In this document: positions 18,211-37,015 of the stretch, one piece after another
Layout: each line of letters starts with the position of its first letter
How positions within the stretch are numbered: position 1 is the first letter of the stretch
Assembly (NCBI GenBank): GCA_045643125.1
Contig: JAZUKE010000006.1
Span: 1-58,716, forward strand
Reading direction: 5' to 3'
Origin: Eubacteriales bacterium
GTDB lineage: Bacteria > Bacillota > Clostridia > Oscillospirales > CAG-382
Length of the DNA stretch: 58,716 nucleotides
The notes under the pieces: model-generated
Database searches by the model: none
Seen by the model: only the letters and a program-made list of their open reading frames with translations
What the model was told of the DNA's origin: nothing
Position numbers and translations under genes: made by a program

Positions 18211-19473
18211 GTGGAATCCTCCCGTCTTGCCGCCGCAAGGACGGTACTCAGAATAACCAAAGATTCGGCGTATTCGTCGATAGAACTTTCAAACAATGCG
18301 TCGCGTTTTGACGGAAACGGAAGCGAAAAGGCGCTTTATGCGTCGATAGTGCGAACGGTCATCGAACGCAGAAAGACGCTCGATCACGTCATCGGTATGT
18401 TTGCGGCAAAAAAGCCCGATCCCACCGTGACGAGCCTGCTTTACGTCGGTATCGCGCAGATATTGTATCTGTCCCGCATACCCGATAACGCCGCCTGCGA
18501 CGAAACGGTAAAAGCCGCCAAAGCTCTCACCGACGCGAAACGTGCGGGCTTTGTCAACGGAGTGCTTCGCAACGTGTGCCGCAGCCGTGAAAAAGTCTGT
18601 GAAAGCATCGAAAAAGCGGGCGATGAAGTCCGTTATTCGATGGACAAAAGCATAATTGATATAATAAGAAAACAGTACGGCGAAAACGCCGATGAAATAC
18701 TCCGTTCTTCGTTCCGCAGACCGCTGATGTGCCTCAGAACGAATACGACGAAAACGACGTCAAGTGAACTTGCGGAAGAACTGACGGAAAAAGGCGTCAT
18801 CTGTGTTACGGACGGAAGCCGTATCACCGTTATGGACGGAGAAGAAAAAGTGATACCGCTGCTTGACGAAGGCAGGTTTTACGTTCAGGGTTATCCGTCG
18901 CAGTTTGCGGTAAGCCTTCTCGGAGCCGAAAAAGGGATGACCGTCATCGACGTCTGCGCCTGCCCCGGAGGCAAAACCGTCGGCGCCGCGATAGATATGG
19001 AAAACGACGGCAGAGTGATCGCGCTCGATATACACGAAAACAAGCTGTCTTTAATAAAAACGACTTCTTCAAAGCTCGGCATCGACATTATCGAAACGTC
19101 GGTGAACGATTCAAGAAAAGTGCGTGACGAATTTGTTTGCAAAGCCGACCGCGTGATCTGCGACGTTCCGTGTTCGTCGCTCGGCGTGCTTTCCTCAAAG
19201 CCGGAAATACGTTATAAAAACGCGGATGATCTTGATTCGCTGTACGAAACGCAGTACGCTATCCTCGCTTCTTCGGCTTCGTACCTCAAAGACGGCGGAA
19301 GAATGGTATATTCGACCTGCACGTTCAACGAAAAAGAAAATTCCGCACAAATACATAAATTTCTCAAAAACAACAAAAACTACTCTTTAATCGAAGAACA
19401 TCGCTTCATTCTCCGCGACGGCTGCTTCGACGGTTTTTACGCCGCTCTGATCGAAAGGAAAAACAATGATTGA
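18211..19473 (+). CDS. rsmB: 16S rRNA (cytosine967-C5)-methyltransferase
   Basis: NusB-like N-terminus, SAM site DVCACPGGKT, catalytic DVPCSSLG and TCT. GTG start after GGAAGGAG. Confidence 0.85.
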   Translation: MESSRLAAARTVLRITKDSAYSSIELSNNASRFDGNGSEKALYASIVRTVIERRKTLDHVIGMFAAKKPDPTVTSLLYVGIAQILYLSRIPDNAACDETVKAAKALTDAKRAGFVNGVLRNVCRSREKVCESIEKAGDEVRYSMDKSIIDIIRKQYGENADEILRSSFRRPLMCLRTNTTKTTSSELAEELTEKGVICVTDGSRITVMDGEEKVIPLLDEGRFYVQGYPSQFAVSLLGAEKGMTVIDVCACPGGKTVGAAIDMENDGRVIALDIHENKLSLIKTTSSKLGIDIIETSVNDSRKVRDEFVCKADRVICDVPCSSLGVLSSKPEIRYKNADDLDSLYETQYAILASSASYLKDGGRMVYSTCTFNEKENSAQIHKFLKNNKNYSLIEEHRFILRDGCFDGFYAALIERKNND

Positions 19474-20491
19474 AATAATGTCAAAAACCGAAGACGAGCT
19501 TGTGGAATACGTCACCTCGATAGGAGAAGCGGCATTCAGGGGACGTCAGCTTTTCGGCTGGCTGCAAAAAGGGATAGATTCCTTTGACGAGCTGAACAAT
19601 ATGCCCAAGTCATTCCGCGCAAAGCTCGAAGCCGACTGTCTGCTGACAACGCTCCGCATTGTAAGATGCCAGATATCCACCGACGGAACGCGGAAATATC
19701 TGTTTGAACTGTACGACGGCGAACGCATCGAAAGCGTGTTTATGAAATACAAACACGGCAACACGGTCTGCGTATCGACGCAGGCAGGCTGCCGTATGGG
19801 GTGCTCGTTCTGCGCTTCGACTTTGAACGGACTGAAGCGCAACCTTTACCCGTCGGAGATACTCCGTCAGATCATTTCGATACAGAAGGACACGGGAGAG
19901 CGCGTTTCCAACGTCGTTCTTATGGGAATGGGCGAGCCGCTCGACAATTACGACAACGTGATACGCTTTCTGCACCTGCTCAACGACGAAAAGGGGCTTA
20001 ACATCGGTTACCGTCACGTTTCGCTTTCGACCTGCGGACTTATCGAAAAAATGGAAAAACTCGCCGACGAGGGACTGCCGATAACGCTTTCGGTGTCGCT
20101 GCACGCGCCTAACGGCGAGATAAGAAAGAATATAATGCCCATCGCAAGGAAATACGCCTACGACGATCTGCTTGCGGAATGTAAAAAATACGAAGAAAAA
20201 ACCAAACGCCGCATATCGTTTGAATACGCGCTCATCTCCGGAGTGAACGACAGAGTGTGCGATGCCGAAAAACTCGGAAAAAGGCTTAAAGGAACGCTTT
20301 GCCACGTCAATCTTATTCCGTTAAACCAAACAGAACGAAAAGTTTACAAACGGAGCGAAAAAAACGCGATAGAATTGTTTACAAAAACGCTCGAAAGTTA
20401 TAAAATAACAGCAACGGTGCGGCGCAGTCTCGGCAGCGATATTTCAGCCGCCTGCGGACAGCTTAAAGCGGAGAGCGACAACATAGAATAA
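19466..20491 (+). CDS. rlmN: 23S rRNA/tRNA (adenine-C2)-methyltransferase, radical SAM
   Basis: CVSTQAGCRMGCSFCAS (CxxxCxxC), MGMGEPLDN. Confidence 0.9.
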   Translation: MIEIMSKTEDELVEYVTSIGEAAFRGRQLFGWLQKGIDSFDELNNMPKSFRAKLEADCLLTTLRIVRCQISTDGTRKYLFELYDGERIESVFMKYKHGNTVCVSTQAGCRMGCSFCASTLNGLKRNLYPSEILRQIISIQKDTGERVSNVVLMGMGEPLDNYDNVIRFLHLLNDEKGLNIGYRHVSLSTCGLIEKMEKLADEGLPITLSVSLHAPNGEIRKNIMPIARKYAYDDLLAECKKYEEKTKRRISFEYALISGVNDRVCDAEKLGKRLKGTLCHVNLIPLNQTERKVYKRSEKNAIELFTKTLESYKITATVRRSLGSDISAACGQLKAESDNIE

Positions 20492-24978: not shown

Positions 24979-25635
24979 ATGTTCATAGGATACTATAATC
25001 TGGCAAATTTCATCACATTGACGGGGCTTTCTTCCGCGGTCGGAGCAATATTTTTGGCGCGTTCCGGTTATTATAAGCTTGCGATAATGGCGATGCTGCT
25101 TGCCGGACTTACCGATATGTTCGACGGGCGCGTGGCGCGTCACGCCAACAGAGAAGACAAAAAAGCAAAGATGTTCGGTATCCAGATCGACACCGTATCC
25201 GATATGGTATCTTTCGGCGTCACTCCTGCCGTCATCGCTTACATACTCGGCTGCCGCTCCGCTCTTGACATAGTCATACTTATCTACTACGTTATATGCG
25301 GCGCGATCAGACTTGCGTATTTCAATACGCAGGCGATAACCGAGACCGAAGACCTCAATCTCAAGGTCTTCACCGGCGTTCCCATCCCGACTATCTGCTT
25401 CATCCTTCCCATACTCGTATGGCTGCTCACCTGCATTGACGGCTCCGTTATGTCATGGGTGTTCCGTGCGTCCTATCTTGTACTCGGAACGGCGTTCATA
25501 ATCAACAAAAAGATAAAGAAATTCGGACTTCTCACAAGCATAATCATCATCGTCGTTATGCTTGCCGTAGTTATCGGGCTTCTCGTTTCCGGCGATGTTG
25601 TCACCATCGGAAGCGCCGTCGGCACAATAGCCTGA
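24979..25635 (+). CDS. pssA: CDP-alcohol phosphatidyltransferase (phosphatidylserine synthase-like)
   Basis: DMFDGRVAR...GIQIDTVSD, i.e. D(x)2DG(x)2AR...G(x)3D(x)3D. Multi-pass membrane protein. Confidence 0.7.
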   Translation: MFIGYYNLANFITLTGLSSAVGAIFLARSGYYKLAIMAMLLAGLTDMFDGRVARHANREDKKAKMFGIQIDTVSDMVSFGVTPAVIAYILGCRSALDIVILIYYVICGAIRLAYFNTQAITETEDLNLKVFTGVPIPTICFILPILVWLLTCIDGSVMSWVFRASYLVLGTAFIINKKIKKFGLLTSIIIIVVMLAVVIGLLVSGDVVTIGSAVGTIA

Positions 25636-25659: not shown

Positions 25660-26643
25660 ATGTCCCTTAAAAACAAGATCTGTATAGCAATAATATGCGT
25701 TCTGTGCGTTATACTTGCTTTCCTTATGGCAAAAGTTGTTTCGTCCGACGTGAACGTGGAACAGTCTGCCGAAAAAACGGCTTCAAAGGAAATATCCGTC
25801 GAAGCAGGCAGCGAAGAATCGGCCCCGGAAGAAAGCTCCGCCGACGATTCGTCGGAAGAGCCGTCAATGGATGCATCGGAGGAAGTTTCCGAAGAAAGCT
25901 CGGAAGAAGTTTCTGAAGAGATCTCGGAAGAAAGCTCGTCACAAGCACTTGACAACGGCAAAGAAAAGCCGAACTATATCAAAAAAGAAGAAGGCAAAAA
26001 ATATATAGCCTTCACGTTTGACGACGGCCCTTCGCCGCGTACTATGGAGCTTCTCGATTTCCTTGAAGAAAACGATATGAAAGCCACGTTTTTCGTGGTC
26101 GGCAACCGACTTGACGGAACTGCCGCGAAATATACCGAGGAAGTCAGGCGCGCATCGTCGCTCGGATATGAAATAGGCGTACACGCCTATACGCACGAAT
26201 ACTATTGGGACAGCTGTTCTGACACGATCTATACGCGTGAAATCGAAAAAACAGCCGAACTGATACACGAAAACGCAGGGTATTACCCCATAATTATGCG
26301 TCCTCCCGGAGGAAGCATCTCGCAGAAACGAGCCGACGAAAGCGAGTATAATATAATTATATGGAACGTCGATTCCGAAGACTGGAAGAATTCTTCGCGT
26401 TCGGACGACGCGACGATCGAAAAGAACATCAACACCATAGTGAGCAACATTATGGAAAACGCAAAGGACGGCGCGATAGTCCTTATGCACGACCTCTATA
26501 CGAATTCCGTCGAAGCCTTCAAGACAGCGTCTCTCCGTCTTAAAGAGCAGGGATATATATTCGTGACGGTCGCCGAGCTTGCCGACCTTAACGGCGATAC
26601 GACTATTGGAAAACGCTATTACAGCGAATATTTGATAAAGTGA
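25660..26643 (+). CDS. CE4 (NodB-type) polysaccharide deacetylase/esterase, signal-anchored, with acidic Ser/Glu linker
   Basis: N-terminal TM helix ICIAIICVLCVILAFLMA and an acidic linker of about 70 aa. All five NodB motifs are present: TFDDG (26011-26025), HAYTHEY, RPPGG, DSEDW, LMHD. Confidence 0.85.
   Translation: MSLKNKICIAIICVLCVILAFLMAKVVSSDVNVEQSAEKTASKEISVEAGSEESAPEESSADDSSEEPSMDASEEVSEESSEEVSEEISEESSSQALDNGKEKPNYIKKEEGKKYIAFTFDDGPSPRTMELLDFLEENDMKATFFVVGNRLDGTAAKYTEEVRRASSLGYEIGVHAYTHEYYWDSCSDTIYTREIEKTAELIHENAGYYPIIMRPPGGSISQKRADESEYNIIIWNVDSEDWKNSSRSDDATIEKNINTIVSNIMENAKDGAIVLMHDLYTNSVEAFKTASLRLKEQGYIFVTVAELADLNGDTTIGKRYYSEYLIK
25966..26643. repeat. Paralogous CE4 catalytic module, copy 1
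   Basis: Aligns by eye with 27059-27742 at both protein and DNA level. Long identical runs include gagtataatataattatatggaacgtcgattccga. Confidence 0.8.
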
Positions 26644-26650
26644 GTCACCA

Positions 26651-27742
26651 ATGAAACGTAAAATCTCTCTTATTCTTGCATCATTACTGATCCTTTCCTG
26701 CCTGTCTTCCTGCGGAAGCGAAAAGATAAACGAAAGCAGCGAGGAAGAATCTTTTACCGAAATAAGCGTTCCCGGACATTCCGAAGAAGAAACGAGCGAA
26801 GACATATCCGTTACGGATACGGAGCTTTCATCCGAGGAAGAAGAATCGTCCGAAGAGGAATCATCGGAAGAGGAATCATCCGAAGAGGAATCGTCCGAAG
26901 AGGAATCATCCGAGGAAGAATCGTCCGAAGAGGAATCGTCCGAGGAAGAATCGTCCGAGGAAGAATCGTACGAAGAAGAATCGTCCGAAGAGGAATCGTC
27001 TGAAGAGGAATCATCCGAAGAAACGTCAACCGATGACGATAAAGCAGCCAAAAAAGAAAAGCCCGCTGAAATCAAGAAAGAAGAAGGCAAAAAATACGTC
27101 GCTTTCACGTTCGACGACGGTCCCTCCATCAGAACGATGGGGCTGCTCGATTTCATCGAAGAAAACGATATGAAGGTGACCTTCTTCGTTGTCGGCAACA
27201 GGCTCGACGGCAAAGGCGACGCCGGCAAGTATGCCGCGGAAGTTAAGCGTGCGTCATCGCTCGGCTGCGAAATAGGCATCCACGCCTACACTCACGAATA
27301 TTATTGGTCAAGCTGCTCCGACGATATATACACGAGCGAGCTTCAGAAGACCGAAACTCTCATATATGAAAACGCAGGCTATTATCCGATAATTATGCGT
27401 CCTCCCGGAGGAAGCATTACCCAGCAGAGAGCCGACGAAAGCGAGTATAATATAATTATATGGAACGTCGATTCCGAGGACTGGAAAAATTCTTCGCGTG
27501 CAGACGACGCGACCATTGAAAAGAACATCAACACCATAGTGAACAACATTATGGACAACGTCAAAGACGGCTCGATCGTCCTTATGCACGATCTTTACGT
27601 CAACTCTGTGGAAGCGTTCAAGATAGCGTCCCTCAGACTCAAAGAAATGGGCTATGAATTCGTCACCGTCGGCGAGCTTGCCGGTCTTGACGGCGAGACT
27701 ACGATAGGCAAACGCTATTACAGCGAATATCTGATAAAGTAA
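26651..27742 (+). CDS. CE4 (NodB-type) polysaccharide deacetylase/esterase, lipoprotein, with (SSEEE)n linker
   Basis: Lipobox LSSCGS, then a perfect Ser/Glu repeat linker, then the same five NodB motifs. The catalytic module is a close paralogue of the upstream gene. Confidence 0.85.
   Translation: MKRKISLILASLLILSCLSSCGSEKINESSEEESFTEISVPGHSEEETSEDISVTDTELSSEEEESSEEESSEEESSEEESSEEESSEEESSEEESSEEESSEEESYEEESSEEESSEEESSEETSTDDDKAAKKEKPAEIKKEEGKKYVAFTFDDGPSIRTMGLLDFIEENDMKVTFFVVGNRLDGKGDAGKYAAEVKRASSLGCEIGIHAYTHEYYWSSCSDDIYTSELQKTETLIYENAGYYPIIMRPPGGSITQQRADESEYNIIIWNVDSEDWKNSSRADDATIEKNINTIVNNIMDNVKDGSIVLMHDLYVNSVEAFKIASLRLKEMGYEFVTVGELAGLDGETTIGKRYYSEYLIK
26831..27022. repeat. In-frame 15-nt tandem repeat, about 12 units of tccgaagaggaatcg, encoding (SEEES)n
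   Basis: Units read directly at 26849, 26864, 26879, ... 26999, with only synonymous or near-synonymous variation. Confidence 0.9.
27059..27742. repeat. Paralogous CE4 catalytic module, copy 2
   Basis: See copy 1. Both copies end in the identical IGKRYYSEYLIK. Confidence 0.8.
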
Positions 27743-27761
27743 TAATCGGAGAAGTATTGCA

Positions 27762-29171
27762 ATGGTTTTTTCTGAATTGTTTTTCCTTTTCGTCTTTTTG
27801 ATATTGTGCATAACGGCATATTTCATCGTGCCCGATATCAAAAGACGCAACATCGTACTTATCGTTTCGTCGCTTGTGTTCTACGCATGGGGCGAGCCGG
27901 CTTATATCTTTTTGCTGCTCGCATCCGTGGCGGTCAACTACTTCTGCGGGCTCGGCATAGATAAGTATCGCGATACGCCGAAAGCCAAGGCGTGTATCGC
28001 TGCTGCTCTCGTATACAATATCGGCGCACTCATATTTTTCAAATACACGGGATTTTTTATCGAAAACATAAATTCGCTGCTTTCCGTTTCGATACCCATA
28101 CCGTCGATCCGTATGCCGCTCGGCATATCGTTCTACACGTTCCAGATAACGTCGTATATCATCGACTGTTATTGGGAAAATGTCGATGTGCAGAAAAGTT
28201 ATTCAAAACTGCTTCTCTACGTTTCGCTGTTCCCGCAGCTTGTCGCAGGCCCGATAGTCAGATATTCCACCATTGAAGAAGAGATCACAGACAGAAGATC
28301 GACTTTCGAGGACGTGAGCGCCGGTATGACGCGCTTCATCGTCGGTCTTGCGAAAAAAGTAATAATCGCAAACAACCTCCATTCTCTCGTTGTCGAGCCG
28401 CTTATCGGCATCGAAGACATTTCAAGTGCGTCGTTCGTCGCTACCGTTGTTGGCGTTATCTGCTACGCGATCTATGTTTACTACGATTTTTCGGGATATT
28501 CCGATATGGCGATAGGTCTCGGACGAATATTCGGCTTCCACTTTGACGAAAACTTCCGTTACCCGTTCGTTTCCGCAAATATCACCGAATTCTGGCAGAG
28601 ATGGCATATCTCGCTCGGCAGCTTCTTCCGCGACTATTTGCTGTACGTTCCCATTTTCGGCAAAAGACGCAAGTATCTCGGTCTGTTCCTCGTGTGGTTC
28701 TGCACCGGATTCTGGCACGGCGCAAGCTGGAACTTCATTATATGGGGACTTTATTTCGGCGTATTCATCCTCTTTGAACTGCTTCTCGGCAAAAAGAGAA
28801 TGAAAAAGATACCAAAGCCGCTCTCTCATATCTATTCGCTCATCGTTATAGCGATAGGCTTCGGCATCTTCTATTTTGAGGATCTTTCGTCTCTCGGCAA
28901 CTTCTTCAAGAACCTTGTCTTCGCAAACGGAAATGCGTTTATTTCCGAAACGGCGAAGTCCGTCATCAGTCAGAACGTATTTCTCATCATCGTTTCGGCG
29001 TTCCTCAGTTTCCCCGTTCTCGATTGGTTTAAGGAAAAAGCAAAGAACAACAAGTCTCTCGACGTTCTGTTTTCGTATACGACTATTGTCACCAACGTCG
29101 TTCTGCTCGTTATCTCGGCGATCCTTCTGGTTGACAGCACGAGCAACGTCTTCCTGTATTGGAGGTTCTGA
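27762..29171 (+). CDS. MBOAT family membrane O-acyltransferase (DltB/AlgI/PatA-like)
   Basis: 469 aa multi-pass protein with N-terminus FSELFFLFVF...YAWGEP. Signature FWQRWHISLGSFFRDYLLY contains the invariant His codon at 28605-28607. Confidence 0.9.
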   Translation: MVFSELFFLFVFLILCITAYFIVPDIKRRNIVLIVSSLVFYAWGEPAYIFLLLASVAVNYFCGLGIDKYRDTPKAKACIAAALVYNIGALIFFKYTGFFIENINSLLSVSIPIPSIRMPLGISFYTFQITSYIIDCYWENVDVQKSYSKLLLYVSLFPQLVAGPIVRYSTIEEEITDRRSTFEDVSAGMTRFIVGLAKKVIIANNLHSLVVEPLIGIEDISSASFVATVVGVICYAIYVYYDFSGYSDMAIGLGRIFGFHFDENFRYPFVSANITEFWQRWHISLGSFFRDYLLYVPIFGKRRKYLGLFLVWFCTGFWHGASWNFIIWGLYFGVFILFELLLGKKRMKKIPKPLSHIYSLIVIAIGFGIFYFEDLSSLGNFFKNLVFANGNAFISETAKSVISQNVFLIIVSAFLSFPVLDWFKEKAKNNKSLDVLFSYTTIVTNVVLLVISAILLVDSTSNVFLYWRF

Positions 29172-29174
29172 GAT

Positions 29175-30719
29175 ATGAAAAACAACAAGAATTTTATCTG
29201 TTTTGTCAATATTCTGGTCGTTTCGGCGGCGTTCATAATAATCAGCTGCTATCTGCTTTTCGCAAAGCGCTCCGTCGTGTCGTCGCTTGAAAGACGCAGA
29301 CTCGAAGAATTCCCGACGTTTTCGGTCAGTTCATATTTCAGCGGTGAATATACCGTAAAACTGCAGACCTGGTTTACCGATACGGTGCCGAGCCGCGACA
29401 CCTGGAAAAAAGCCGACGTCAAGATTAGATCGCTTTTCGGTATTACGCCCGAAATGACGATCCAGGGCGATGTCACCGAAACCAGCGAAGAGGAGATCCC
29501 GAGCGGTGAAGTCAGCGATCCGTTTGAGGATTGGTCTGAACCGGAGGAATCGAGCAATGAAGAACATTCTTCCGTCATCGAGGAATCCGAAGAAACAAGC
29601 ACGTCTCAGTCTTCTGCCGAAGCAAGCGAAGAACCGAGCGCTGATGTGAGTGAAGAAATATCCGAAGAGCAAAGCGAGGAGCCGAGTGAAGAGCCGAGCG
29701 AAGAAACGAGCGAAGCGGCCGACGACGTCAGAACGGATCCTTCCGGGCTTCTTATCTTCAACAACAAGTGTATGGAACAGTTCGGCGGCACTTACGATGC
29801 CGGACAGCTCTATGCGAAGTATATCGCAAACTACAAAAACGACCTCGGAAGCAAGGTCAACGTCTATTCGATGGTCATTCCGTCCGCGTCTTCCATCTAT
29901 CTGCCCGACAAGTATTATAAGATATACGGCGGCGAGCAGATCAAGAAGATAGACTATATCTACGAGCAGTTCACGACAGGTCTGTATAAGGACGCGGGAG
30001 TTATCCCCGTAAGCATTTACGACGTGCTGAACTCTCACAAAAACGAATATATCTATTTCAACACCGAACACCATTGGACTATGCTCGGCGGATATTACGC
30101 GGCTGAAAAATTCGCGTCTGTCGCGGGACTGCCGTTCAAGAAACTGTTTGTGAACGGTACGAAGACGGTAGATACGAACAATTACACCTATGAAGGAAAA
30201 TTCAACGACGACGGATCACCCAAGCCGTTCGTAGGCTCTTTCGGCGGTCAGGTCAAAACGGACGTGCTGACCAAGCATCCCGATACATTCTTCTGGTACA
30301 GCTATACCGGCAAGTATAACGTCAGATACTACAATTACGACTTCACCGAGCTTAAAAAGGAAAGAGACACCTGCTTCCTCAAGGTCAGCGATGCCAATTC
30401 AAGCTCGTGGTATATGATCTTTATGGACGGCGATAACTATTCCATTCGCATTGATACCGACGTTCATAACGGCAGAGTCGCGGTCGTGTTCAAGGATTCC
30501 TACGGAAATGCGCTTGTCCCGATGATGCTTTCGTCGTTCGAGACGATATACTGCATCGACTTCCGCTATTTCCCGCTCGATCCCGTCGATTTCATTCAAA
30601 AAGTCGGTGCGACCGATGTCGTATTTGCGACAAGCTCGTTCCAGGTACTCGGCTCGAATTACAAGAGATTCGAGGCAATGCGCCGTCAGACAAAGAAATT
30701 CGTTGATATCGGAGAATAA
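29175..30719 (+). CDS. DHHW-family (AlgJ/AlgX/PatB-like, SGNH-type) extracytoplasmic protein, signal-anchored, with acidic linker
   Basis: N-terminal TM helix FICFVNILVVSAAFIIISCYLLFA and an acidic Ser/Glu stretch. YFNTEHHWTMLGGYYA (EHHW at 30066-30077) and downstream FKDSYGNAL. Confidence 0.75.
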   Translation: MKNNKNFICFVNILVVSAAFIIISCYLLFAKRSVVSSLERRRLEEFPTFSVSSYFSGEYTVKLQTWFTDTVPSRDTWKKADVKIRSLFGITPEMTIQGDVTETSEEEIPSGEVSDPFEDWSEPEESSNEEHSSVIEESEETSTSQSSAEASEEPSADVSEEISEEQSEEPSEEPSEETSEAADDVRTDPSGLLIFNNKCMEQFGGTYDAGQLYAKYIANYKNDLGSKVNVYSMVIPSASSIYLPDKYYKIYGGEQIKKIDYIYEQFTTGLYKDAGVIPVSIYDVLNSHKNEYIYFNTEHHWTMLGGYYAAEKFASVAGLPFKKLFVNGTKTVDTNNYTYEGKFNDDGSPKPFVGSFGGQVKTDVLTKHPDTFFWYSYTGKYNVRYYNYDFTELKKERDTCFLKVSDANSSSWYMIFMDGDNYSIRIDTDVHNGRVAVVFKDSYGNALVPMMLSSFETIYCIDFRYFPLDPVDFIQKVGATDVVFATSSFQVLGSNYKRFEAMRRQTKKFVDIGE

Positions 30720-30721
30720 TA

Positions 30722-32059
30722 ATGAAAAGAAAACTCTCGCTTTTTCTCGTGCTTGTTATGATAATTACCGTTCTTGCGTCCTGCGCCGACGAAATTGCCG
30801 TGGAACACAGCTCCGAGGAAGAGTATAAGGAAATAAGTCTCCCGTCCCATTCTTCTGCCGAGGAGACCGAAGAAGAATCGTCAATAGCCGCATCGTCGTC
30901 CGATGAACCGTCCTTGACGGAAGAATCGAGCGAGGAAGCGTCAGACGAACAGACGAGTGAGGAAATCTCAAAGGAAGAATCCAAAGAAGAGCCTTCGGAA
31001 GAAGAATCAAAGGAAGAGCCTTCGGAAGAAGAATCAAAAGAGGAACCGAGCAAAGAAGAATCAAAGGAGGAGCCGTCTGAGGAATCGTCCGAAGAACCGT
31101 CCGAGGAATCGAGCGAAGAACAGAGTGAAGAGACTTCGGAAGAAACAAGCTCCAAAGGCTATATTACCGAAGAGGGCGGAATAATCATCAACGGAACTCG
31201 CGGAATGGAGCAGTTCTACGTCGATACCTCAAGCCAGGCAGGCAAAGGACTCTGCGATACCGTCGCAAAGATACAGGAAGACCTCGGAGACAGCGCAAAA
31301 GTCTATCTTATGGTACCTCCTGCAGCGGTGGTATATTACGCACCCGATAATTACAGCTATTTCAAAAAATACGGCCCGGCTATGCAGACGTCGTTAAGAG
31401 AATACTGCAACGGCAGATTCATAAATATCGACTGCTACGGCGTTCTTGCGGAGCATACCGCCGAAGATATTTATTTCCGCACGGAGCATCATTGGGCGTC
31501 GCTCGGCGCTTATTACTGCTGCAAGGAATTTGCCTCCCTTGCGGGATTCAAGATCGGCGATCTTGACAGCGATTACACCAAAAAGTGCGTCGAAGACACG
31601 GTCGGTACTCTGTATGCGTTCTCGCACGAACCGGTACTCAAAAACAATCCCGAAGATATCGACTACTACGAGCCGCATATCGAATATAACGTCCGCGTGC
31701 TTAATGCCGATCAAAAGAATTTCGAGACCGAAGGCTTCGACAGATCTTCGATGTTCTATCCGTCATTCAGCAACTACGGCGTATTCTTCGCGCTCGACGA
31801 CTGGGCGTTCAAGATCACGATGCCGTCGAACGATACGGGCAGAACGCTCGTTATCCTCAAGGATTCCTACGGTATGAACGTCCCCGAATTCCTGCTTTTC
31901 GGCTTTGACACCATCTATATGGTCGATTTCAGATATTTCCCGCGCAACTGCGTTGAATTCTGCAAAGAAGTCGGTGCGACCGAAGTGCTTGTAATTTCGT
32001 CCGGAATGAGTACTTTCGGCACTATATGGAAAAAACTTGAATCAATGCGTACAAAATAA
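30722..32059 (+). CDS. DHHW-family (AlgJ/AlgX/PatB-like) extracytoplasmic protein, lipoprotein, with acidic repeat linker
   Basis: Lipobox VLASCADE and a long Ser/Glu/Lys/Pro linker. YFRTEHHWASLGAYYC (EHHW at 31484-31495) and LKDSYGMNV. Confidence 0.75.
   Translation: MKRKLSLFLVLVMIITVLASCADEIAVEHSSEEEYKEISLPSHSSAEETEEESSIAASSSDEPSLTEESSEEASDEQTSEEISKEESKEEPSEEESKEEPSEEESKEEPSKEESKEEPSEESSEEPSEESSEEQSEETSEETSSKGYITEEGGIIINGTRGMEQFYVDTSSQAGKGLCDTVAKIQEDLGDSAKVYLMVPPAAVVYYAPDNYSYFKKYGPAMQTSLREYCNGRFINIDCYGVLAEHTAEDIYFRTEHHWASLGAYYCCKEFASLAGFKIGDLDSDYTKKCVEDTVGTLYAFSHEPVLKNNPEDIDYYEPHIEYNVRVLNADQKNFETEGFDRSSMFYPSFSNYGVFFALDDWAFKITMPSNDTGRTLVILKDSYGMNVPEFLLFGFDTIYMVDFRYFPRNCVEFCKEVGATEVLVISSGMSTFGTIWKKLESMRTK
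30974..31081. repeat. In-frame 27-nt tandem repeat, 4 units, encoding EESKEEPSE
   Basis: Units start at 30974, 31001, 31028 and 31055. They are followed by shorter degenerate SEEPSEES units. Confidence 0.85.
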
Positions 32060-32073
32060 TACGGAGAAAAACT

Positions 32074-33849
32074 ATGTTTTCTTACCCTCTTGATCCGCAA
32101 TATCTTCTCAAAAACAAAAGAAAACTCAAAAAGCAGCTTCTTTCCGACGGAAGCAAGAGAGTTTCAAAAAAAGTTGCCATCCTTTGCGGCTCTACCGCAA
32201 ACGATATAAAAGACCTTTGCGAGCTTTTCCTGCTTGACAACGGGATACAGCCGGAATTTTATATGTCGGAATACGATCAGTATTTCCAGGACGCGGTGTT
32301 CGGGAACGAGGAATTCGAGTCTTTTGCGCCCGATATCATCTTCGTCCACACCACAACGCGGAATATAGAACGCTATTTCCCGTCGGCAAAGAGCGGAAAA
32401 GAAGAATGTGCGTCGCTGCTTAACGAAGCAAAAAATCATTTCTCGCTTATCTGGGACAAGCTCACACGCTTCAAATGCCCCGTGATACAGAACAATTTTG
32501 AACTGCCGCGTTACCGCATAATGGGCAACCGCGATGCTTTCGACGACAGGGGAGCGGTAAGATTCGTGAACAGAATGAACGAATTTATCGCCGATCACGC
32601 AAGCGAAAACGCAAACTTCTATGTAAACGACGTCGCTTACGTTTCCGCACGCTACGGTATCGACAAATGGTCGGATCAGTCGGTGTGGTATATGTATAAG
32701 TACGCGCTTGCGCTCGACGCCATACCCGATTTTGCGTTCAACCTTGCAAACATCATCAAATCCGTCTTCGGCAAAAACAAAAAGGCATTCGCACTTGACC
32801 TCGATAACACGCTTTGGGGCGGCATCGTCGGCGACGACGGAGTTGAAAACCTCTCTCTCGGCGAAGAGACCGCTGACGGTCAGGCGTATCACGATTTTCA
32901 GAAGTATATAAAAAAGGTCAGCGAGACCGGCGTAATGCTCACTATAAATTCCAAAAACGATATGGAAAATGCCATTGCCGGGCTGAATCACAAGGACAGC
33001 TGCCTCAAGCCGGATGATTTCATTATCATCAAGGCAAATTGGGAGCCGAAGAATCAGAATATGCTTGCCCTTGCCAAAGAACTGAATATAGGGCTTGACG
33101 CATTCGTGTTTGCCGGCGATAACCCCGTCGAAAGGAGCATCGTCGCTTCGTCCACGACTGCCGCGGTGCCGGAGCTTGAAAGCGTCGAAACGTATATCAC
33201 AACGCTTGACAGAAACGGATATTTCGAGATCACGTCGTTTTCCGATGACGACCTTCACCGCAACGAAATGTACAAGCAGAACGTAATGCGTGAGCAGGAG
33301 CTTGCGTCTGCCGAGAATTACGAGGATTTCTTACTCGGACTTGATATGAAAGCCGAGATAGGCGCTTTCATTCCCGTGTATATACAGCGTATCGCGCAGC
33401 TTACGAACAAATCAAACCAGTTCAACGTCACCACGCGCCGCTATACCGCATCCGAGATCGAAGAAACGGAAGCCGACGGCAAGCACATCACGCTTTACGG
33501 CAAGCTCGTTGACCGTTTCGGCGACAACGGTGTCGTTTCGGTAGTTATCGGCAGCATAAACGGCAAAGTCCTTGACGTCGATCTGTGGATAATGTCGTGC
33601 CGCGTACTCAAACGCGATATGGAATTTGCGATGCTCGACGAGCTTGTGAAAAGGGCAACTGAAAAGGGAATAGAAGAGATCAGAGGCTATTACTACCCGA
33701 CCGCTAAAAACGGAATGGTAAAGGAACTTTTCGGTACTTTCGGCTTTGACAGAGTAAGTCTTGACGACGACGGCAGCTCCGTCTGGTCGCTTAAAACGGC
33801 AGGGTATAAGAATCAGAACAGATATATTAAGAAAGAGGACACAAAATGA
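32074..33849 (+). CDS. FkbH-type HAD-IIIC phosphatase/acyl-loading enzyme
   Basis: HAD motif I FALDLDNTLWGG (Asp codons 32797 and 32803), motif II TINSKN, motif IV FAGDNPVE. The C-terminal domain has DLWIMSCRVLKRDME (Cys codon 33598-33600). The stop overlaps the ACP start. Confidence 0.75.
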   Translation: MFSYPLDPQYLLKNKRKLKKQLLSDGSKRVSKKVAILCGSTANDIKDLCELFLLDNGIQPEFYMSEYDQYFQDAVFGNEEFESFAPDIIFVHTTTRNIERYFPSAKSGKEECASLLNEAKNHFSLIWDKLTRFKCPVIQNNFELPRYRIMGNRDAFDDRGAVRFVNRMNEFIADHASENANFYVNDVAYVSARYGIDKWSDQSVWYMYKYALALDAIPDFAFNLANIIKSVFGKNKKAFALDLDNTLWGGIVGDDGVENLSLGEETADGQAYHDFQKYIKKVSETGVMLTINSKNDMENAIAGLNHKDSCLKPDDFIIIKANWEPKNQNMLALAKELNIGLDAFVFAGDNPVERSIVASSTTAAVPELESVETYITTLDRNGYFEITSFSDDDLHRNEMYKQNVMREQELASAENYEDFLLGLDMKAEIGAFIPVYIQRIAQLTNKSNQFNVTTRRYTASEIEETEADGKHITLYGKLVDRFGDNGVVSVVIGSINGKVLDVDLWIMSCRVLKRDMEFAMLDELVKRATEKGIEEIRGYYYPTAKNGMVKELFGTFGFDRVSLDDDGSSVWSLKTAGYKNQNRYIKKEDTK

Positions 33850-34088
33850 CAACGAACAAAATTTACGCAAGACTTGAAAACGTATTTGAAGAAGTGTTTG
33901 ACGAAAAGATCAAGCTCACTCCCGCTACTACCGCAGACGACGTTGACGATTGGGACTCGCTTTCCCACATAACGCTTATCGCCGCTGTCGAAGACGAATT
34001 TAAAATGAAATTCAAAATGAAAGAAGTCTCGTCTATGAAAAACGTGGGCGAAATGGCTGCCATCGTTGCCGAAAGAGCAAAAAAATAA
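33846..34088 (+). CDS. Dedicated acyl/peptidyl carrier protein
   Basis: 80 aa, acidic, DDVDDWDSLSHITLIAAVEDEF, with the phosphopantetheine-site Ser in DSL (33957-33959). ATGA overlap with the loader gene. Confidence 0.85.
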   Translation: MTTNKIYARLENVFEEVFDEKIKLTPATTADDVDDWDSLSHITLIAAVEDEFKMKFKMKEVSSMKNVGEMAAIVAERAKK

Positions 34089-34090
34089 AT

Positions 34091-34184
34091 TCAAAATTCC
34101 CGCAATAATCAAAGCGCACTTTCGTAATTTGAAAGTGCGCTTTTATAGTTGTTTTATTTGAGCGGCGTAAAGAACGAGTTTGAC
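34091..34184. repeat. Intergenic direct repeat, copy A (tcaaaattcc ... hairpin ... gcggcgtaaagaacgagtttgac)
   Basis: Shares three blocks in the same order with copy B: tcaaaattcc, the agcgcac..tgaaagtgcgct hairpin, and the identical 23-mer gcggcgtaaagaacgagtttgac. Confidence 0.7.
34111..34150 (+). terminator. Rho-independent terminator of the plus-strand gene train
   Basis: 13-bp stem AAAGCGCACTTTC / GAAAGTGCGCTTT with a 7-nt loop, running into TTTTAT. Confidence 0.6.
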
Positions 34185-34412: not shown

Positions 34413-34814
34413 TCAGAACGCTTTTTTCATTGTAAAGATGTTCTTCCCGTCCTCGTAGGAATAAGAAACCTCGTCCATTGATTTTCTGACCATAAATATG
34501 CCAAGCCCGCCGATCTTTCTGTCTTCCGCCGAAAGAGTTATATCGGGTGTTTCCATTTCAAGCGGGTTGAACGGCATACCGCTGTCGATAAAAGTTATTG
34601 AAGCACATCCGTCGGAATAATCGAAAATCATTTTTACATCGCCCTTGTTTTCGCCGTAGGCATAATGCGCGACATTGACGTACATTTCTTCTACGCAGAC
34701 GGTTATCTGCATAACCGCTTTCATCGGGCAATCTACTTTTTCGAGTTCTTCTTCTATGAAACCGATAGCGTCGTTGAGCGTGTCATCGGTGGCTTCAAAG
34801 GTTCTTTCTGTCAT
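34413..34814 (-). CDS. RsbW/SpoIIAB-like anti-sigma-type Ser kinase (HATPase_c_2)
   Basis: N-box EEMYVNVAHYAY, G1 DSGMPFNP, G2 GGLGIFMVRKSMD. Start trimmed to MTERTFEAT; its ATG shares one nt with the upstream TAA (TAATG). Confidence 0.8.
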   Translation of the reverse strand: MTERTFEATDDTLNDAIGFIEEELEKVDCPMKAVMQITVCVEEMYVNVAHYAYGENKGDVKMIFDYSDGCASITFIDSGMPFNPLEMETPDITLSAEDRKIGGLGIFMVRKSMDEVSYSYEDGKNIFTMKKAF

Positions 34815-37015
34815 TATATTTTCCCTCTCTCTTTGTATTCCAGGCAAAGCATCGTGATATCGTCGAACTGCGGAGCGCTTCCTACAAATTTGTCGATATC
34901 GGCTTTGATTGCCGGAAGAAGCTCGTGAGGTTTCTTATAGGCGTTATCACCGAGCACTTTTTCAAGACGGTTCATACCGTAAAGTTCATTGTTTGCGTTC
35001 GTGGCTTCGGTAACACCATCGGTGTATTGGAAGATCTTGTCACCGGGTTCAATGATTATTTCACCCGTCTTGTATCTCATACCTTCCATACCGGCGAGAA
35101 CGAAACCGGGACGGATCTTATACGGTGCGTATTTGCCGTCTTTCTTGCAGATGAACGGCATTTCGTGTCCTGCATTGACAAAGCGGAAAACGCCGGTCGT
35201 CAAGTCAAGCACGCCTTCAAAAGCGGTAACGAAAAGCTCGCCGCTGTTGGATTCGCAAAGCAGTTTGTTTACGGTGGAGAAGACTTCGCCGAGGTCCTGA
35301 TTGGGGTTCGTGTGGTCTTTGATAAGAGTCTTTGCAATTACCATAAACAACGCAGCGGGAACGCCTTTGCCCGAAACGTCAGCCATAACAATGGCGATAT
35401 GGTTATCATCGACCATAAAGTAATCGTAGAAGTCGCCGCCGACCTCTTTTGCCGGTGTCATAGTCGCGTAAATGTCAAATTCGGTTCTGTCGGGGAAGGG
35501 CGGGAAAACGCAGGGAAGCATAGATGCCTGAATACGTGTAGCAACGTCAAGCTCCGCACTGATACGTTCTTTTTCGGCAGTGACGGCAGCAAGGTTCTTG
35601 ATATAACCGTTGAGGCTTTCCGTCATATTGTTGAATGCGTTGCCGAGGTCTTCGATCTCATCGTCGGTCTTGATGTGCAGGACGTAATTAAGGTCGCCGC
35701 CGCCGATCTTATCGACGCCGTCTTTAAGCTCAATGATAGGTGTGGTGAAGGATTTTGCAAATTTTGTCGAGATTATTATTACCGAAACAATGATAAGTAT
35801 TACCAGAATTGCGAAAATAATGAAGGCGGAAATGATTCGGTCGTTGACCTTATTGTAGTTAGTCATAATAAGATCGTCGTTAGTGCTGATAACGGTAACG
35901 AGGGTCCAGTCGTTATTTTCGAGTGCAGAGTAAGTAACGTAGCATTCCTGACCGTCAATTGTGATCGTACTTATGTTTGATTTTTCGTTGTTCTGTATTT
36001 TGCGTGCAAGTTCGACAAGACCTTTGTTTTCGCTCTTGCTGAGATCGGTCTCGATCATAACTTCGCTGTCTTTGGAGGTTTTTTCGCTTGTGTTGGGGTT
36101 GATGATGACGTTGGTCTTGTTGCGGCTTACCATAAACGAATAACCGGTCGAACCGATGGTCGAGCTTTCGACAAGATCGGCAAAGTTCGTGAGAAGTCCG
36201 CCGCTGCCGGCAACGCCGACGATTTTTCCGTCCACCACTACGGGAACGGCGCAGATCATCGAAATGCCTCTGCCGGAGCCGTCCTGAACGGGATCAGTCC
36301 AATAAACTCCCGATTTGGTAAGGGTGTTGTTCTTATATGCTTCGACTGCGCCCGTGTACCAGCCGCGCGTGCGTCCGTCGTAGCTGATCATAGCGGCGGT
36401 GAGAGGATCGCCCAGAACGTCCATTCCGCTGTCGTCAAAGCAGAAATAGGAGGCGGCAAAGCCCGTGTATGTGCCGTCGTCGTTGCGGAAATTCTCTATC
36501 TGTGCAAATTCGTTGCCGAGCAGGGAAGCCAGATAAAGCTCCTCGTTGACGGTGAATCTGCCGCCGGTAGAAGCGTCGCGGTCGATCTCGGCGAAAGTTA
36601 CCGTGCCGTTATCGTCTTTTTTGACGTTTTTGAGCAGATTATCGGGAACACGGACGTGTACCGAATACTGTCCCAGTGTGTATTTGGAATTGCAGGTAAC
36701 GTCGGGCAGGTTCAGTTCGTTGTAACCCAAAAGGTATCTGTCGGCGTTCTCAAGGATGTCGGCGGCGCCTGTTGCCACCATTATCGTCTGATTCTGAGCA
36801 AGAAGCAGCATTGAATCGGCTATCGAAGCGCGGTTTTGCGTCAGCTCGATAAGACGTTCTTTTGCGTCTGCTTCGGCAGTTTCCAACGAGTTCGTCCTTA
36901 TGTCGAGCATGGAAAAGATAGAGATACATACGGTGATCATCAGCGAAACGACACTGATTATGATTATCAGTCTCGTCAGCTTCTGGCGGATGCCGGTGTG
37001 CTTGCTTTTTTTCAT
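34814..37015 (-). CDS. Membrane sensor phosphatase: TM - dCache-like ectodomain - TM - HAMP - PP2C/SpoIIE domain
   Basis: Two TM helices flank an ectodomain of about 360 aa with a Cache-type TRGWYTGA motif. HAMP DEIEDLGNAFNNM. PP2C motifs GGDFYDY, ADVSGKGVPAALFM, YTDGVTEA, DDITML. Confidence 0.85.
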   Translation of the reverse strand: MKKSKHTGIRQKLTRLIIIISVVSLMITVCISIFSMLDIRTNSLETAEADAKERLIELTQNRASIADSMLLLAQNQTIMVATGAADILENADRYLLGYNELNLPDVTCNSKYTLGQYSVHVRVPDNLLKNVKKDDNGTVTFAEIDRDASTGGRFTVNEELYLASLLGNEFAQIENFRNDDGTYTGFAASYFCFDDSGMDVLGDPLTAAMISYDGRTRGWYTGAVEAYKNNTLTKSGVYWTDPVQDGSGRGISMICAVPVVVDGKIVGVAGSGGLLTNFADLVESSTIGSTGYSFMVSRNKTNVIINPNTSEKTSKDSEVMIETDLSKSENKGLVELARKIQNNEKSNISTITIDGQECYVTYSALENNDWTLVTVISTNDDLIMTNYNKVNDRIISAFIIFAILVILIIVSVIIISTKFAKSFTTPIIELKDGVDKIGGGDLNYVLHIKTDDEIEDLGNAFNNMTESLNGYIKNLAAVTAEKERISAELDVATRIQASMLPCVFPPFPDRTEFDIYATMTPAKEVGGDFYDYFMVDDNHIAIVMADVSGKGVPAALFMVIAKTLIKDHTNPNQDLGEVFSTVNKLLCESNSGELFVTAFEGVLDLTTGVFRFVNAGHEMPFICKKDGKYAPYKIRPGFVLAGMEGMRYKTGEIIIEPGDKIFQYTDGVTEATNANNELYGMNRLEKVLGDNAYKKPHELLPAIKADIDKFVGSAPQFDDITMLCLEYKERGKI

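Follow-up and report, generated by a model that had tools for sequence, protein, structure and literature searches.

A clostridial gene cluster joining an MBOAT and DHHW proteins to an FkbH-like enzyme and a carrier protein: a candidate envelope O-acylation system

The window analyzed here is the whole stretch of 58,716 nucleotides (nt) covering positions 1 to 58,716 of contig JAZUKE010000006.1 from the Eubacteriales bacterium assembly GCA_045643125.1. Within it, seven co-directional open reading frames (ORFs) on the + strand fill positions 25660-34088 and encode proteins of 327, 363, 469, 514, 445, 591, and 80 amino acids. The junctions between the genes measure 7, 19, 3, 2, and 14 nt and end with an ATGA overlap, and the operon is closed by a single terminator-like hairpin with a 14-bp stem (34111-34143, + strand) that lies 22 nt past the last stop codon. 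The last five genes are the subject of this work, as a candidate pathway for the acylation of an envelope polymer: they encode a predicted PatA/AlgI-type MBOAT (27762-29171), two DHHW-family proteins (DHHW-1, 29175-30719, and DHHW-2, 30722-32059), an FkbH-like loader (32074-33849), and an acyl carrier protein (ACP; 33846-34088) whose gene overlaps that of the loader. Two genes for CE4 polysaccharide deacetylases precede them.

The MBOAT (469 amino acids) scored 81.6 bits on PF03062, against a gathering cut-off of 27, and its His282 (codon 28605-28607) lies within FWQRWHISL and aligns with the His motif of DltB. The DltB model TIGR04091 was its sole NCBIfam match (159.1 bits, under the equivalog cut-off of 375), and DltB 6BUG was its best PDB match (1e-24). 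The C-terminus reads FLYWRF (amino acids 464-469; 29151-29168), with the tyrosine at position 466, and is preceded by two hydrophobic helices that are extra relative to DltB (stretches of about 400-424 and 432-466). FXYXXF is an acyl-shuttle motif: PatA auto-acetylates its tyrosine, and in the Dlt pathway the motif is carried by the separate microprotein DltX, whereas PatA/AlgI-type MBOATs have it fused on two extra transmembrane helices that DltB lacks (PMC12148441). By these sequence features, the window protein is assigned to the PatA/AlgI type, the subclass with a fused acyl shuttle. The preliminary description of this DNA had remarked that the gaps of 2-19 nt are too small for a DltX-like microprotein, which is correct, but it overlooked the reason: the MBOAT itself ends in the shuttle motif, and this fusion explains the absence of a DltX-like ORF.

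Both DHHW proteins matched PF14286, DHHW-1 (514 amino acids) with 187.6 bits over the whole model and DHHW-2 (445 amino acids) with 97.7 bits and the N-terminal part of the model missing; the two are 34% identical. The motifs EHHW, KDSYG, and DFRY were located at 30066-30077, 30492-30506 (nucleophile Ser442), and 30558-30569 in DHHW-1 and at 31484-31495, 31859-31873, and 31925-31936 in DHHW-2, the Asp of the DHHW motif being Glu in both. PDB matches of DHHW-1 were 4NZK (8.5e-48), an uncharacterized Eubacterium siraeum protein (EUBSIR_00411), and PatB1 (5V8E, 1.9e-7). In the alignment with PatB1, TEHHW pairs with TDHHW, KDSYGNA with KDSFANA, and IDFRY with LDLRH; in PatB1, KDSFANA holds the nucleophile Ser337 and LDLRH forms the Asp-x-Arg oxyanion block. 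DHHW-1 is accordingly a predicted N-terminally membrane-anchored, circularly permuted SGNH-like ecto-acyltransferase, and its paralogue DHHW-2, with an LASC lipobox, a predicted lipoprotein.

The loader (591 amino acids) scored 271.5 bits on TIGR01686, against a cut-off of 146.65, with additional matches to FkbH_N and HAD-IIIC, and contains DLDNT (32797-32811), SKN, GDNPVE, and SCRV with Cys509 at 33598-33600. It was aligned with two references obtained from a plasmid search, ZmaN from the zwittermicin cluster (locus L008) and a Streptomyces tetronate-type FkbH encoded between a type III ketosynthase (KSIII) and an ACP (locus L010). At an identity of 27-29%, the three proteins share D242, D244, T246, S293-K294-N295, D349, P351, E353, N448-Q449-x-N451-x-T453, D480, G483, G486, and S508-C509-R510 as invariant residues, so the catalytic Cys and HAD residues whose loss the preliminary description had named as a reason for doubt are retained. 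In an AlphaFold2 model (pLDDT 82.8, pTM 0.76), approximately the first 380-400 residues matched 3SLR, the N-domain and phosphatase of B. fragilis BF1531, with a Foldseek TM-score of 0.87 (normalized to the target), and the C-terminal part matched GNAT acetyltransferases with a TM-score of about 0.7. The model thus suggests an architecture of N-domain, HAD domain, and GNAT-like domain, with Cys509 placed in the last of these. The GNAT fold typically binds pantetheine arms.

In the carrier protein (80 amino acids), Ser38 (codon 33957-33959) lies within WDSLSH, the DSL phosphopantetheine site. The closest structure, 2LML (E 1.2e-15), is a nuclear magnetic resonance structure of a "putative acyl carrier protein" and shares WDSLSH. 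Most of these components had been named in the preliminary description, which listed seven tightly packed co-directional genes, an MBOAT with its invariant His, two DHHW paralogues with (E)HHW and KDSYG, an HAD-IIIC/FkbH-type protein, a carrier protein with a DSL serine, and two complete CE4 enzymes. The ORF list and the measured junctions agreed with this layout, all motif coordinates were correct on recheck, and profile searches recovered every family named (MBOAT, DHHW, Polysacc_deac_1, FkbH/HAD-IIIC, and PP-binding, the last at a borderline score considered below).

The conservation of the cluster was examined among one genome per GTDB species. FkbH-like relatives number in the thousands (at least 8000 scored); the best 120 are 57-90% identical to the window protein, and the FkbH-like group forms its own well-conserved subfamily in gut Clostridia, with 50-70% identity. 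The window proteins, together with some additional queries, were mapped onto the best 80 loci of at least 587 genomes with an FkbH-like relative. These 80 loci belong to Oscillospiraceae, Lachnospiraceae, Ruminococcus, Christensenellaceae, and other Clostridia, and include the cultured strains Ruminococcus flavefaciens 007c, Eisenbergiella tayi DSM 26961, and Lachnospiraceae bacterium YSD2013. The carrier gene adjoins the FkbH-like gene in 75 of the 80, and an MBOAT gene lies within the retrieved flank in 63, or in 37 of the 46 loci for which at least 5 kb is available on both sides. Proteins of the MBOAT-DHHW-DHHW-FkbH-ACP core are 57-70% identical in relatives, and three homologue contigs showed the same core of MBOAT, DHHW, DHHW, FkbH-like protein, and an ORF of 78-83 amino acids embedded in three different sets of flanking genes. 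The second DHHW copy is present in some lineages only.

Three gene orders were distinguished. Order A, that of the window, runs MBOAT, DHHW (one or two copies), FkbH, ACP. In order B, FkbH, ACP, and MBOAT are followed by a membrane-anchored protein of about 350 amino acids without a Pfam match, or a GDSL protein is found nearby. Clusters of order C (about 17 of the 80 loci) include a MaoC-type dehydratase, alone or accompanied by an SDR reductase, and it often lies between ACP and MBOAT. Nearly all FkbH-linked MBOATs end in F-[LI]-Y-x-x-F, as NPFLYFRF in order A and as FIYxxF in orders B and C. The conserved unit is an MBOAT, one or two DHHW proteins, an FkbH-like loader, and an 80-amino-acid carrier protein. 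The linkage of loader, carrier, and MBOAT outlasts changes of gene order and context, as is characteristic of a functional unit. The co-occurrence of the four families proposed in the preliminary description therefore recurs in unrelated contexts, and its expectation that the cluster is kept as a unit in related genomes applies to the core, not to the CE4 genes.

The variant clusters bear on what the carrier protein does. MaoC genes, with or without SDR genes, were seen in L026 (12035-13185), L036 (12012-12431), L009 (11139-12409), L043, L048, L086, and L087. Such clusters imply that the ACP-bound C3 unit is tailored before export, for example to pyruvoyl or lactyl; dehydration of glyceryl-ACP would yield pyruvoyl, and a later reduction lactyl. 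Tailoring of a carrier-bound unit in this way supports the view that the ACP feeds the MBOAT. In the order B loci, the protein after the MBOAT has an N-terminal transmembrane segment and about 340-375 amino acids (L040, 13534-14601; L074, 8886-9902; L041, 13622-14689; L036, 13955-15022), with several copies in L035 and L056. It had no Pfam match and no PDB profile match, and hhalign against the DHHW alignment gave a probability of 4.5%. It carries a D-x4-G-x-S motif near the N-terminus (DVV.IGSS in two of four) and D...H near the C-terminus, and may represent an unclassified SGNH or DltD-like family of ecto-transferases. In E. tayi DSM 26961 (L053, 4961-17307), FkbH-ACP-MBOAT stands among three DUF6056 genes, two GT2 glycosyltransferases, a YdjC-like gene, and a GDSL gene, a context that would fit a surface-glycan locus; a second, divergent MBOAT is encoded there on the opposite strand (18890-20362). 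The Streptomyces locus L010 has the arrangement KSIII-FkbH-ACP, unlike the window cluster. The closest solved structures of the DHHW protein (4NZK), the FkbH N-domain with its HAD domain (3SLR), and the ACP (2LML) are all of uncharacterized proteins, presumably structural-genomics entries, and these proteins may come from the same kind of system.

We lean, with some caution, towards reading the five core genes as a carrier-protein-dependent MBOAT-SGNH pathway that would O-acylate an extracytoplasmic envelope glycopolymer with a glyceryl-type C3 unit. Direct observation covers the families, the catalytic motifs, the structure of the operon, and the linkage; the pathway is built on them by homology and synteny. 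Characterized FkbH enzymes make glyceryl-S-ACP from 1,3-bisphosphoglycerate (mechanism summaries in PMC9057759 and PMC7489565). In the pathway proposed, the cytoplasmic FkbH-like enzyme would take 1,3-bisphosphoglycerate onto Cys509, its HAD domain would strip the 3-phosphate, and the glyceryl group would be passed to the neighboring ACP, onto its phosphopantetheine arm, as suggested by family membership and the conserved catalytic residues. Glyceryl-S-ACP would bind the MBOAT from the cytoplasmic side, much as DltC binds DltB, and His282 would catalyze acyl transfer through the membrane onto Tyr466 of FLYWRF, as the motif and the mechanisms of PatA and DltB/DltX suggest. A DltB-like tunnel could plausibly accommodate lactyl and glyceryl as well as D-alanyl groups, since each is a small C3 acyl group substituted at position 2. 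On the outside, the acyl-Tyr peptide would pass the group to the nucleophilic Ser of membrane-anchored DHHW-1, as its homology to PatB1 suggests, and DHHW-1, the lipoprotein DHHW-2, or both, in a division resembling that of AlgJ and AlgX, would esterify a hydroxyl on a wall polysaccharide, teichoic acid, or peptidoglycan. The preliminary description had proposed that an FkbH-type loader replaces DltA. Its coupling of a loader and carrier to an MBOAT/SGNH pair holds, with the linkage, the several gene orders, and the intact residues in its favor, but the chassis is of the PatA1/PatB1 type and not a Dlt operon with DltA exchanged: with its MBOAT ending in the FXYXXF motif of the PatA/AlgI type, the system would be a PatA1/PatB1-type machine with a Dlt-style carrier supply.

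Several points weigh against this carrier-fed pathway. We infer from sequence the acyl group, the hand-off from ACP to MBOAT, and the acceptor alike. The carrier protein scored 20.4 bits on PF00550, marginally under the gathering score of 20.8; its E. tayi orthologue, at 24.7 bits, lies above it. The window loader has Gly348 (33115-33117) in HAD motif IV, giving GDNPVE where 30 of 30 aligned relatives have DDNP(A/V)E, among them two that are 89-90% identical. This single-residue, strain-specific change adjoins the invariant Asp349, which is kept, and GDxxxE resembles other variants of HAD motif IV; D348G, found in the window protein alone, might weaken the phosphatase step. Further, the retrieved flank lacks an MBOAT in 17 of the 80 loci; about 7 of these loci lie on contigs that end early. 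S. variabile, from the plasmid search, has FkbH-ACP-MaoC-SDR without an MBOAT within 9 kb, and two loci, L037 (7129-12014) and L070 (7361-11995), consist of DHHW-DHHW-FkbH-ACP with no MBOAT detected within 7 kb upstream; in these two, it may be encoded elsewhere or lost. Finally, PatA-type MBOATs with a fused Tyr motif are known so far with acetyl-CoA, which they use wherever tested (PMC12148441), and the window MBOAT could likewise use it.

The use of acetyl-CoA by such MBOATs and the FkbH-ACP pairs without an adjacent MBOAT would fit a cluster of two separate modules, an MBOAT/DHHW pair for acetyl-CoA-dependent O-acetylation (PatA1/PatB1- or CcsH/CcsI-like) and an FkbH/ACP pair making glyceryl-ACP for a different step in the synthesis of the same surface polymer, for example the supply of a glycerate residue; the two would be co-located only because they serve one glycan. 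MBOAT and DHHW pairs carry out O-acetylation in B. cereus, and the same is predicted for clostridial cellulose loci; in C. difficile, lipoteichoic acid is known to contain glyceric acid as a building block (PMC13558421). We nevertheless regard two modules as rather unlikely: the FkbH-ACP-MBOAT linkage is kept through several gene orders, also in L002 and L005, where other glycan genes are missing, tailoring genes stand between ACP and MBOAT in many loci, and the window cluster contains no ketosynthase, condensation domain, or glycosyltransferase able to consume glyceryl-ACP. It is less likely still that the architecture is as proposed but the exported group another one, the subfamily loading a different acyl phosphate or retaining a 3-phosphoglyceryl unit, which would give a charged or different ester. 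The low identity to characterized-type FkbH homologues and D348G would allow for this, and the MaoC/SDR variants show that what the ACP carries can be modified; the remaining HAD residues and the Cys motif common to ZmaN and the tetronate-type FkbH are invariant, and to our knowledge every characterized FkbH-family enzyme uses 1,3-bisphosphoglycerate.

The canonical role of FkbH/ACP pairs would have them feed a tetronate or methoxymalonyl polyketide pathway whose genes lie in another part of the genome. Here, as the preliminary description had noted, no polyketide synthase (PKS), non-ribosomal peptide synthetase (NRPS), or ketosynthase genes were found in the profiled flanks of the window cluster. 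More specifically, FkbG/I/J/K-type enzymes, FabH-like KSIII, and PKS were absent from the cluster and its profiled flanks, which sets it apart from methoxymalonyl and tetronate glycerate-utilization operons, and the related loci with called genes likewise had no KSIII, PKS, NRPS, FkbG/I/J/K-type dehydrogenase, or methyltransferase. The FkbH/ACP pair is consistently accompanied by an MBOAT, and identity to PKS-associated homologues is below 30%. A polyketide role is thus very improbable, and we rejected it for want of a PKS or ketosynthase nearby.

The two genes upstream of the core, CE4a (25660-26643, + strand, 327 amino acids) and CE4b (26651-27742, + strand, 363 amino acids), scored 97 and 86 bits on Polysacc_deac_1 (PF01522), and both proteins hold the five CE4 motifs TFDDGP, HAYTH, RPPGG, DSEDW, and LMHD. 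CE4a is predicted to be a membrane-anchored or secreted (PgdA/PdaB-like) polysaccharide deacetylase with an acidic Ser/Glu linker, and CE4b, whose N-terminus contains ...LSSC, a lipoprotein with an (SSEEE)n linker encoded by 12.3 copies of a 15-nt tandem repeat (26837-27021). Their catalytic domains are 83% identical, and by this identity the pair is a recent tandem duplication of a neighboring gene. The preliminary description had cast the CE4 enzymes as erasers or as preparing the acceptor. Synteny speaks against such a part: among the related loci, a CE4 gene adjoins the core in just two, namely L001 (the closest relative, with one copy) and L086 (1 of the 80 species-representative loci). 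With the recent duplication, this led us to exclude them as components, and they are probably lineage-specific neighbors outside the core system.

All four exported proteins (CE4a, CE4b, DHHW-1, and DHHW-2) bear long acidic Ser/Glu-rich linkers of low complexity, with up to 98% S/E/D/T across 60 amino acids. The linker DNA consists of tandem repeats with units of 12-27 nt (25876-25938, 26837-27021, 29663-29715, and 30974-31121), and these repeats could differ in length among strains. The GAA-rich repeats behind these Ser/Glu linkers also give rise to long minus-strand ORFs, such as 25939-27279, which are antisense artefacts. The upstream flank is made up of an array of housekeeping genes (YicC, Gmk, PriA, Def, Fmt, RsmB, RlmN, PP2C, PASTA kinase, RsgA, and CDP-alcohol phosphatidyltransferase), of which the last gene (24979-25635, 218 amino acids) ends 24 nt upstream of CE4a. 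The order PrkC, RsgA, CDP-OH_P_transf, CE4, MBOAT and onwards is also found in L001, a 70%-identity relative, so the cluster may be co-transcribed in this lineage with the CDP-alcohol phosphatidyltransferase, a lipid- or teichoic-type gene. The downstream flank lies on the opposite strand and encodes partner-switching and two-component regulators, a GNAT protein, an MFS transporter, and a sugar kinase. The gene after the operon (34413-34847, minus strand) is convergent with it; in the minus-strand region 34413-37015, an RsbW-like HATPase_c_2 anti-sigma kinase (144 amino acids) overlaps a 733-amino-acid SpoIIE/PP2C phosphatase with Cache and HAMP sensor domains, and a 336-amino-acid GNAT-domain protein comes next.

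Extended beyond the window, the carrier-fed acylation reading would mean that gut and rumen Clostridia (Oscillospiraceae, Lachnospiraceae, Ruminococcus, Christensenellaceae, and others) hold a second, unrecognized carrier-protein-dependent MBOAT-SGNH pathway. Its FkbH-type loader would tap glycolysis, and wall glycopolymers would receive C3 hydroxy-acyl esters, glyceryl in window-type clusters and pyruvoyl or lactyl in those with MaoC with or without SDR; the ecto-transferases (DHHW, GDSL, or the family of about 350 amino acids) would be interchangeable. In our judgment, this wider proposition is evenly balanced between right and wrong. If it is true, one would expect the walls of abundant gut commensals to bear new esters (glyceryl, lactyl), which might affect recognition by the host immune system, and there would be a family of envelope modifications without a chemical description so far. 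FkbH enzymes would also gain a role in primary metabolism outside polyketide biosynthesis. The established MBOAT-SGNH pathways (Dlt, PatAB, AlgIJX, PatA1B1) act on surface charge, resistance to lysozyme and antimicrobial peptides, recognition by phages and lectins, and S-layer anchoring. The cultured carriers R. flavefaciens 007c and E. tayi DSM 26961 make the idea directly testable. No description of FkbH-ACP-MBOAT-SGNH clusters was found in the open-access full texts searched, though subscription journals could hold one; the nearest hints are cj1302, an FkbH-domain gene in the flagellar glycosylation locus of Campylobacter, and the glyceric acid of C. difficile lipoteichoic acid.

Among known systems, DltABCD/DltX is the closest in its supply line. 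In Dlt, and by prediction here, a small dedicated carrier receives a C3 acyl group in the cytoplasm, an MBOAT takes the group across the membrane, an acyl-Tyr FXYXXF shuttle accepts it, and an SGNH-type ecto-transferase (here by homology) delivers it. The window system differs in having an FkbH-type loader (HAD plus Cys/GNAT-like) in place of the DltA adenylation enzyme, a shuttle motif fused to the MBOAT instead of a DltX microprotein, a DHHW protein rather than DltD as ecto-transferase, and a hydroxy-acyl (glyceryl) rather than a D-alanyl group as the predicted cargo. Profile searches gave no match to the AMP-binding or DltD families among the seven window proteins; with DltA, DltD, and DltX absent and the DltB cut-off missed (159.1 versus 375), a true Dlt operon was rejected.

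The chassis itself resembles PatA1/PatB1, which O-acetylates the secondary cell wall polysaccharide of B. cereus and is grouped here with PatA/PatB, AlgI/AlgJ/AlgX, and CcsH/CcsI: a fused-FXYXXF MBOAT is combined with DHHW-family (PatB1-like) transferases in which the Ser, His, and Asp-x-Arg motifs of PatB1 are conserved, and the presence of two SGNH-like proteins, one anchored and one a lipoprotein, recalls AlgJ and AlgX. Those systems, however, are fed by acetyl-CoA and have neither carrier nor loader, whereas the MBOAT here is in conserved linkage with genes for an ACP and an FkbH-like protein, which argues against plain membership of the PatA1/PatB1 type. According to a 2025 mechanistic paper (PMC12148441), Dlt is the only MBOAT/SGNH pathway with a carrier protein, and the system proposed here, if real, would break the dichotomy between a carrier protein in Dlt only and acetyl-CoA elsewhere.

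With the FkbH, OzmB, ZmaN, and tetronate loaders, the window loader shares TIGR01686, the invariant DxDxT, SKN, NQFN, and SCR (Cys) motifs, an adjacent stand-alone ACP, and, with the tetronate type, the N-terminal FkbH_N domain; it differs from them in its 27-29% identity, in the lack of downstream polyketide enzymes, and in its envelope MBOAT partner. In FkbH-DH-KR loading, as for the D-lactate starter of bryostatin, glyceryl-ACP is converted to lactyl-ACP. The sister clusters in which genes for a MaoC dehydratase and an SDR come after FkbH-ACP follow a similar logic, but their proteins are discrete and lead to an MBOAT instead of a PKS module, and the tailoring genes are missing from the window cluster. 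The system thus resembles a hybrid: a PatA1/PatB1-type chassis with a Dlt-like supply line and a loader taken from polyketide extender-unit and tetronate biochemistry.

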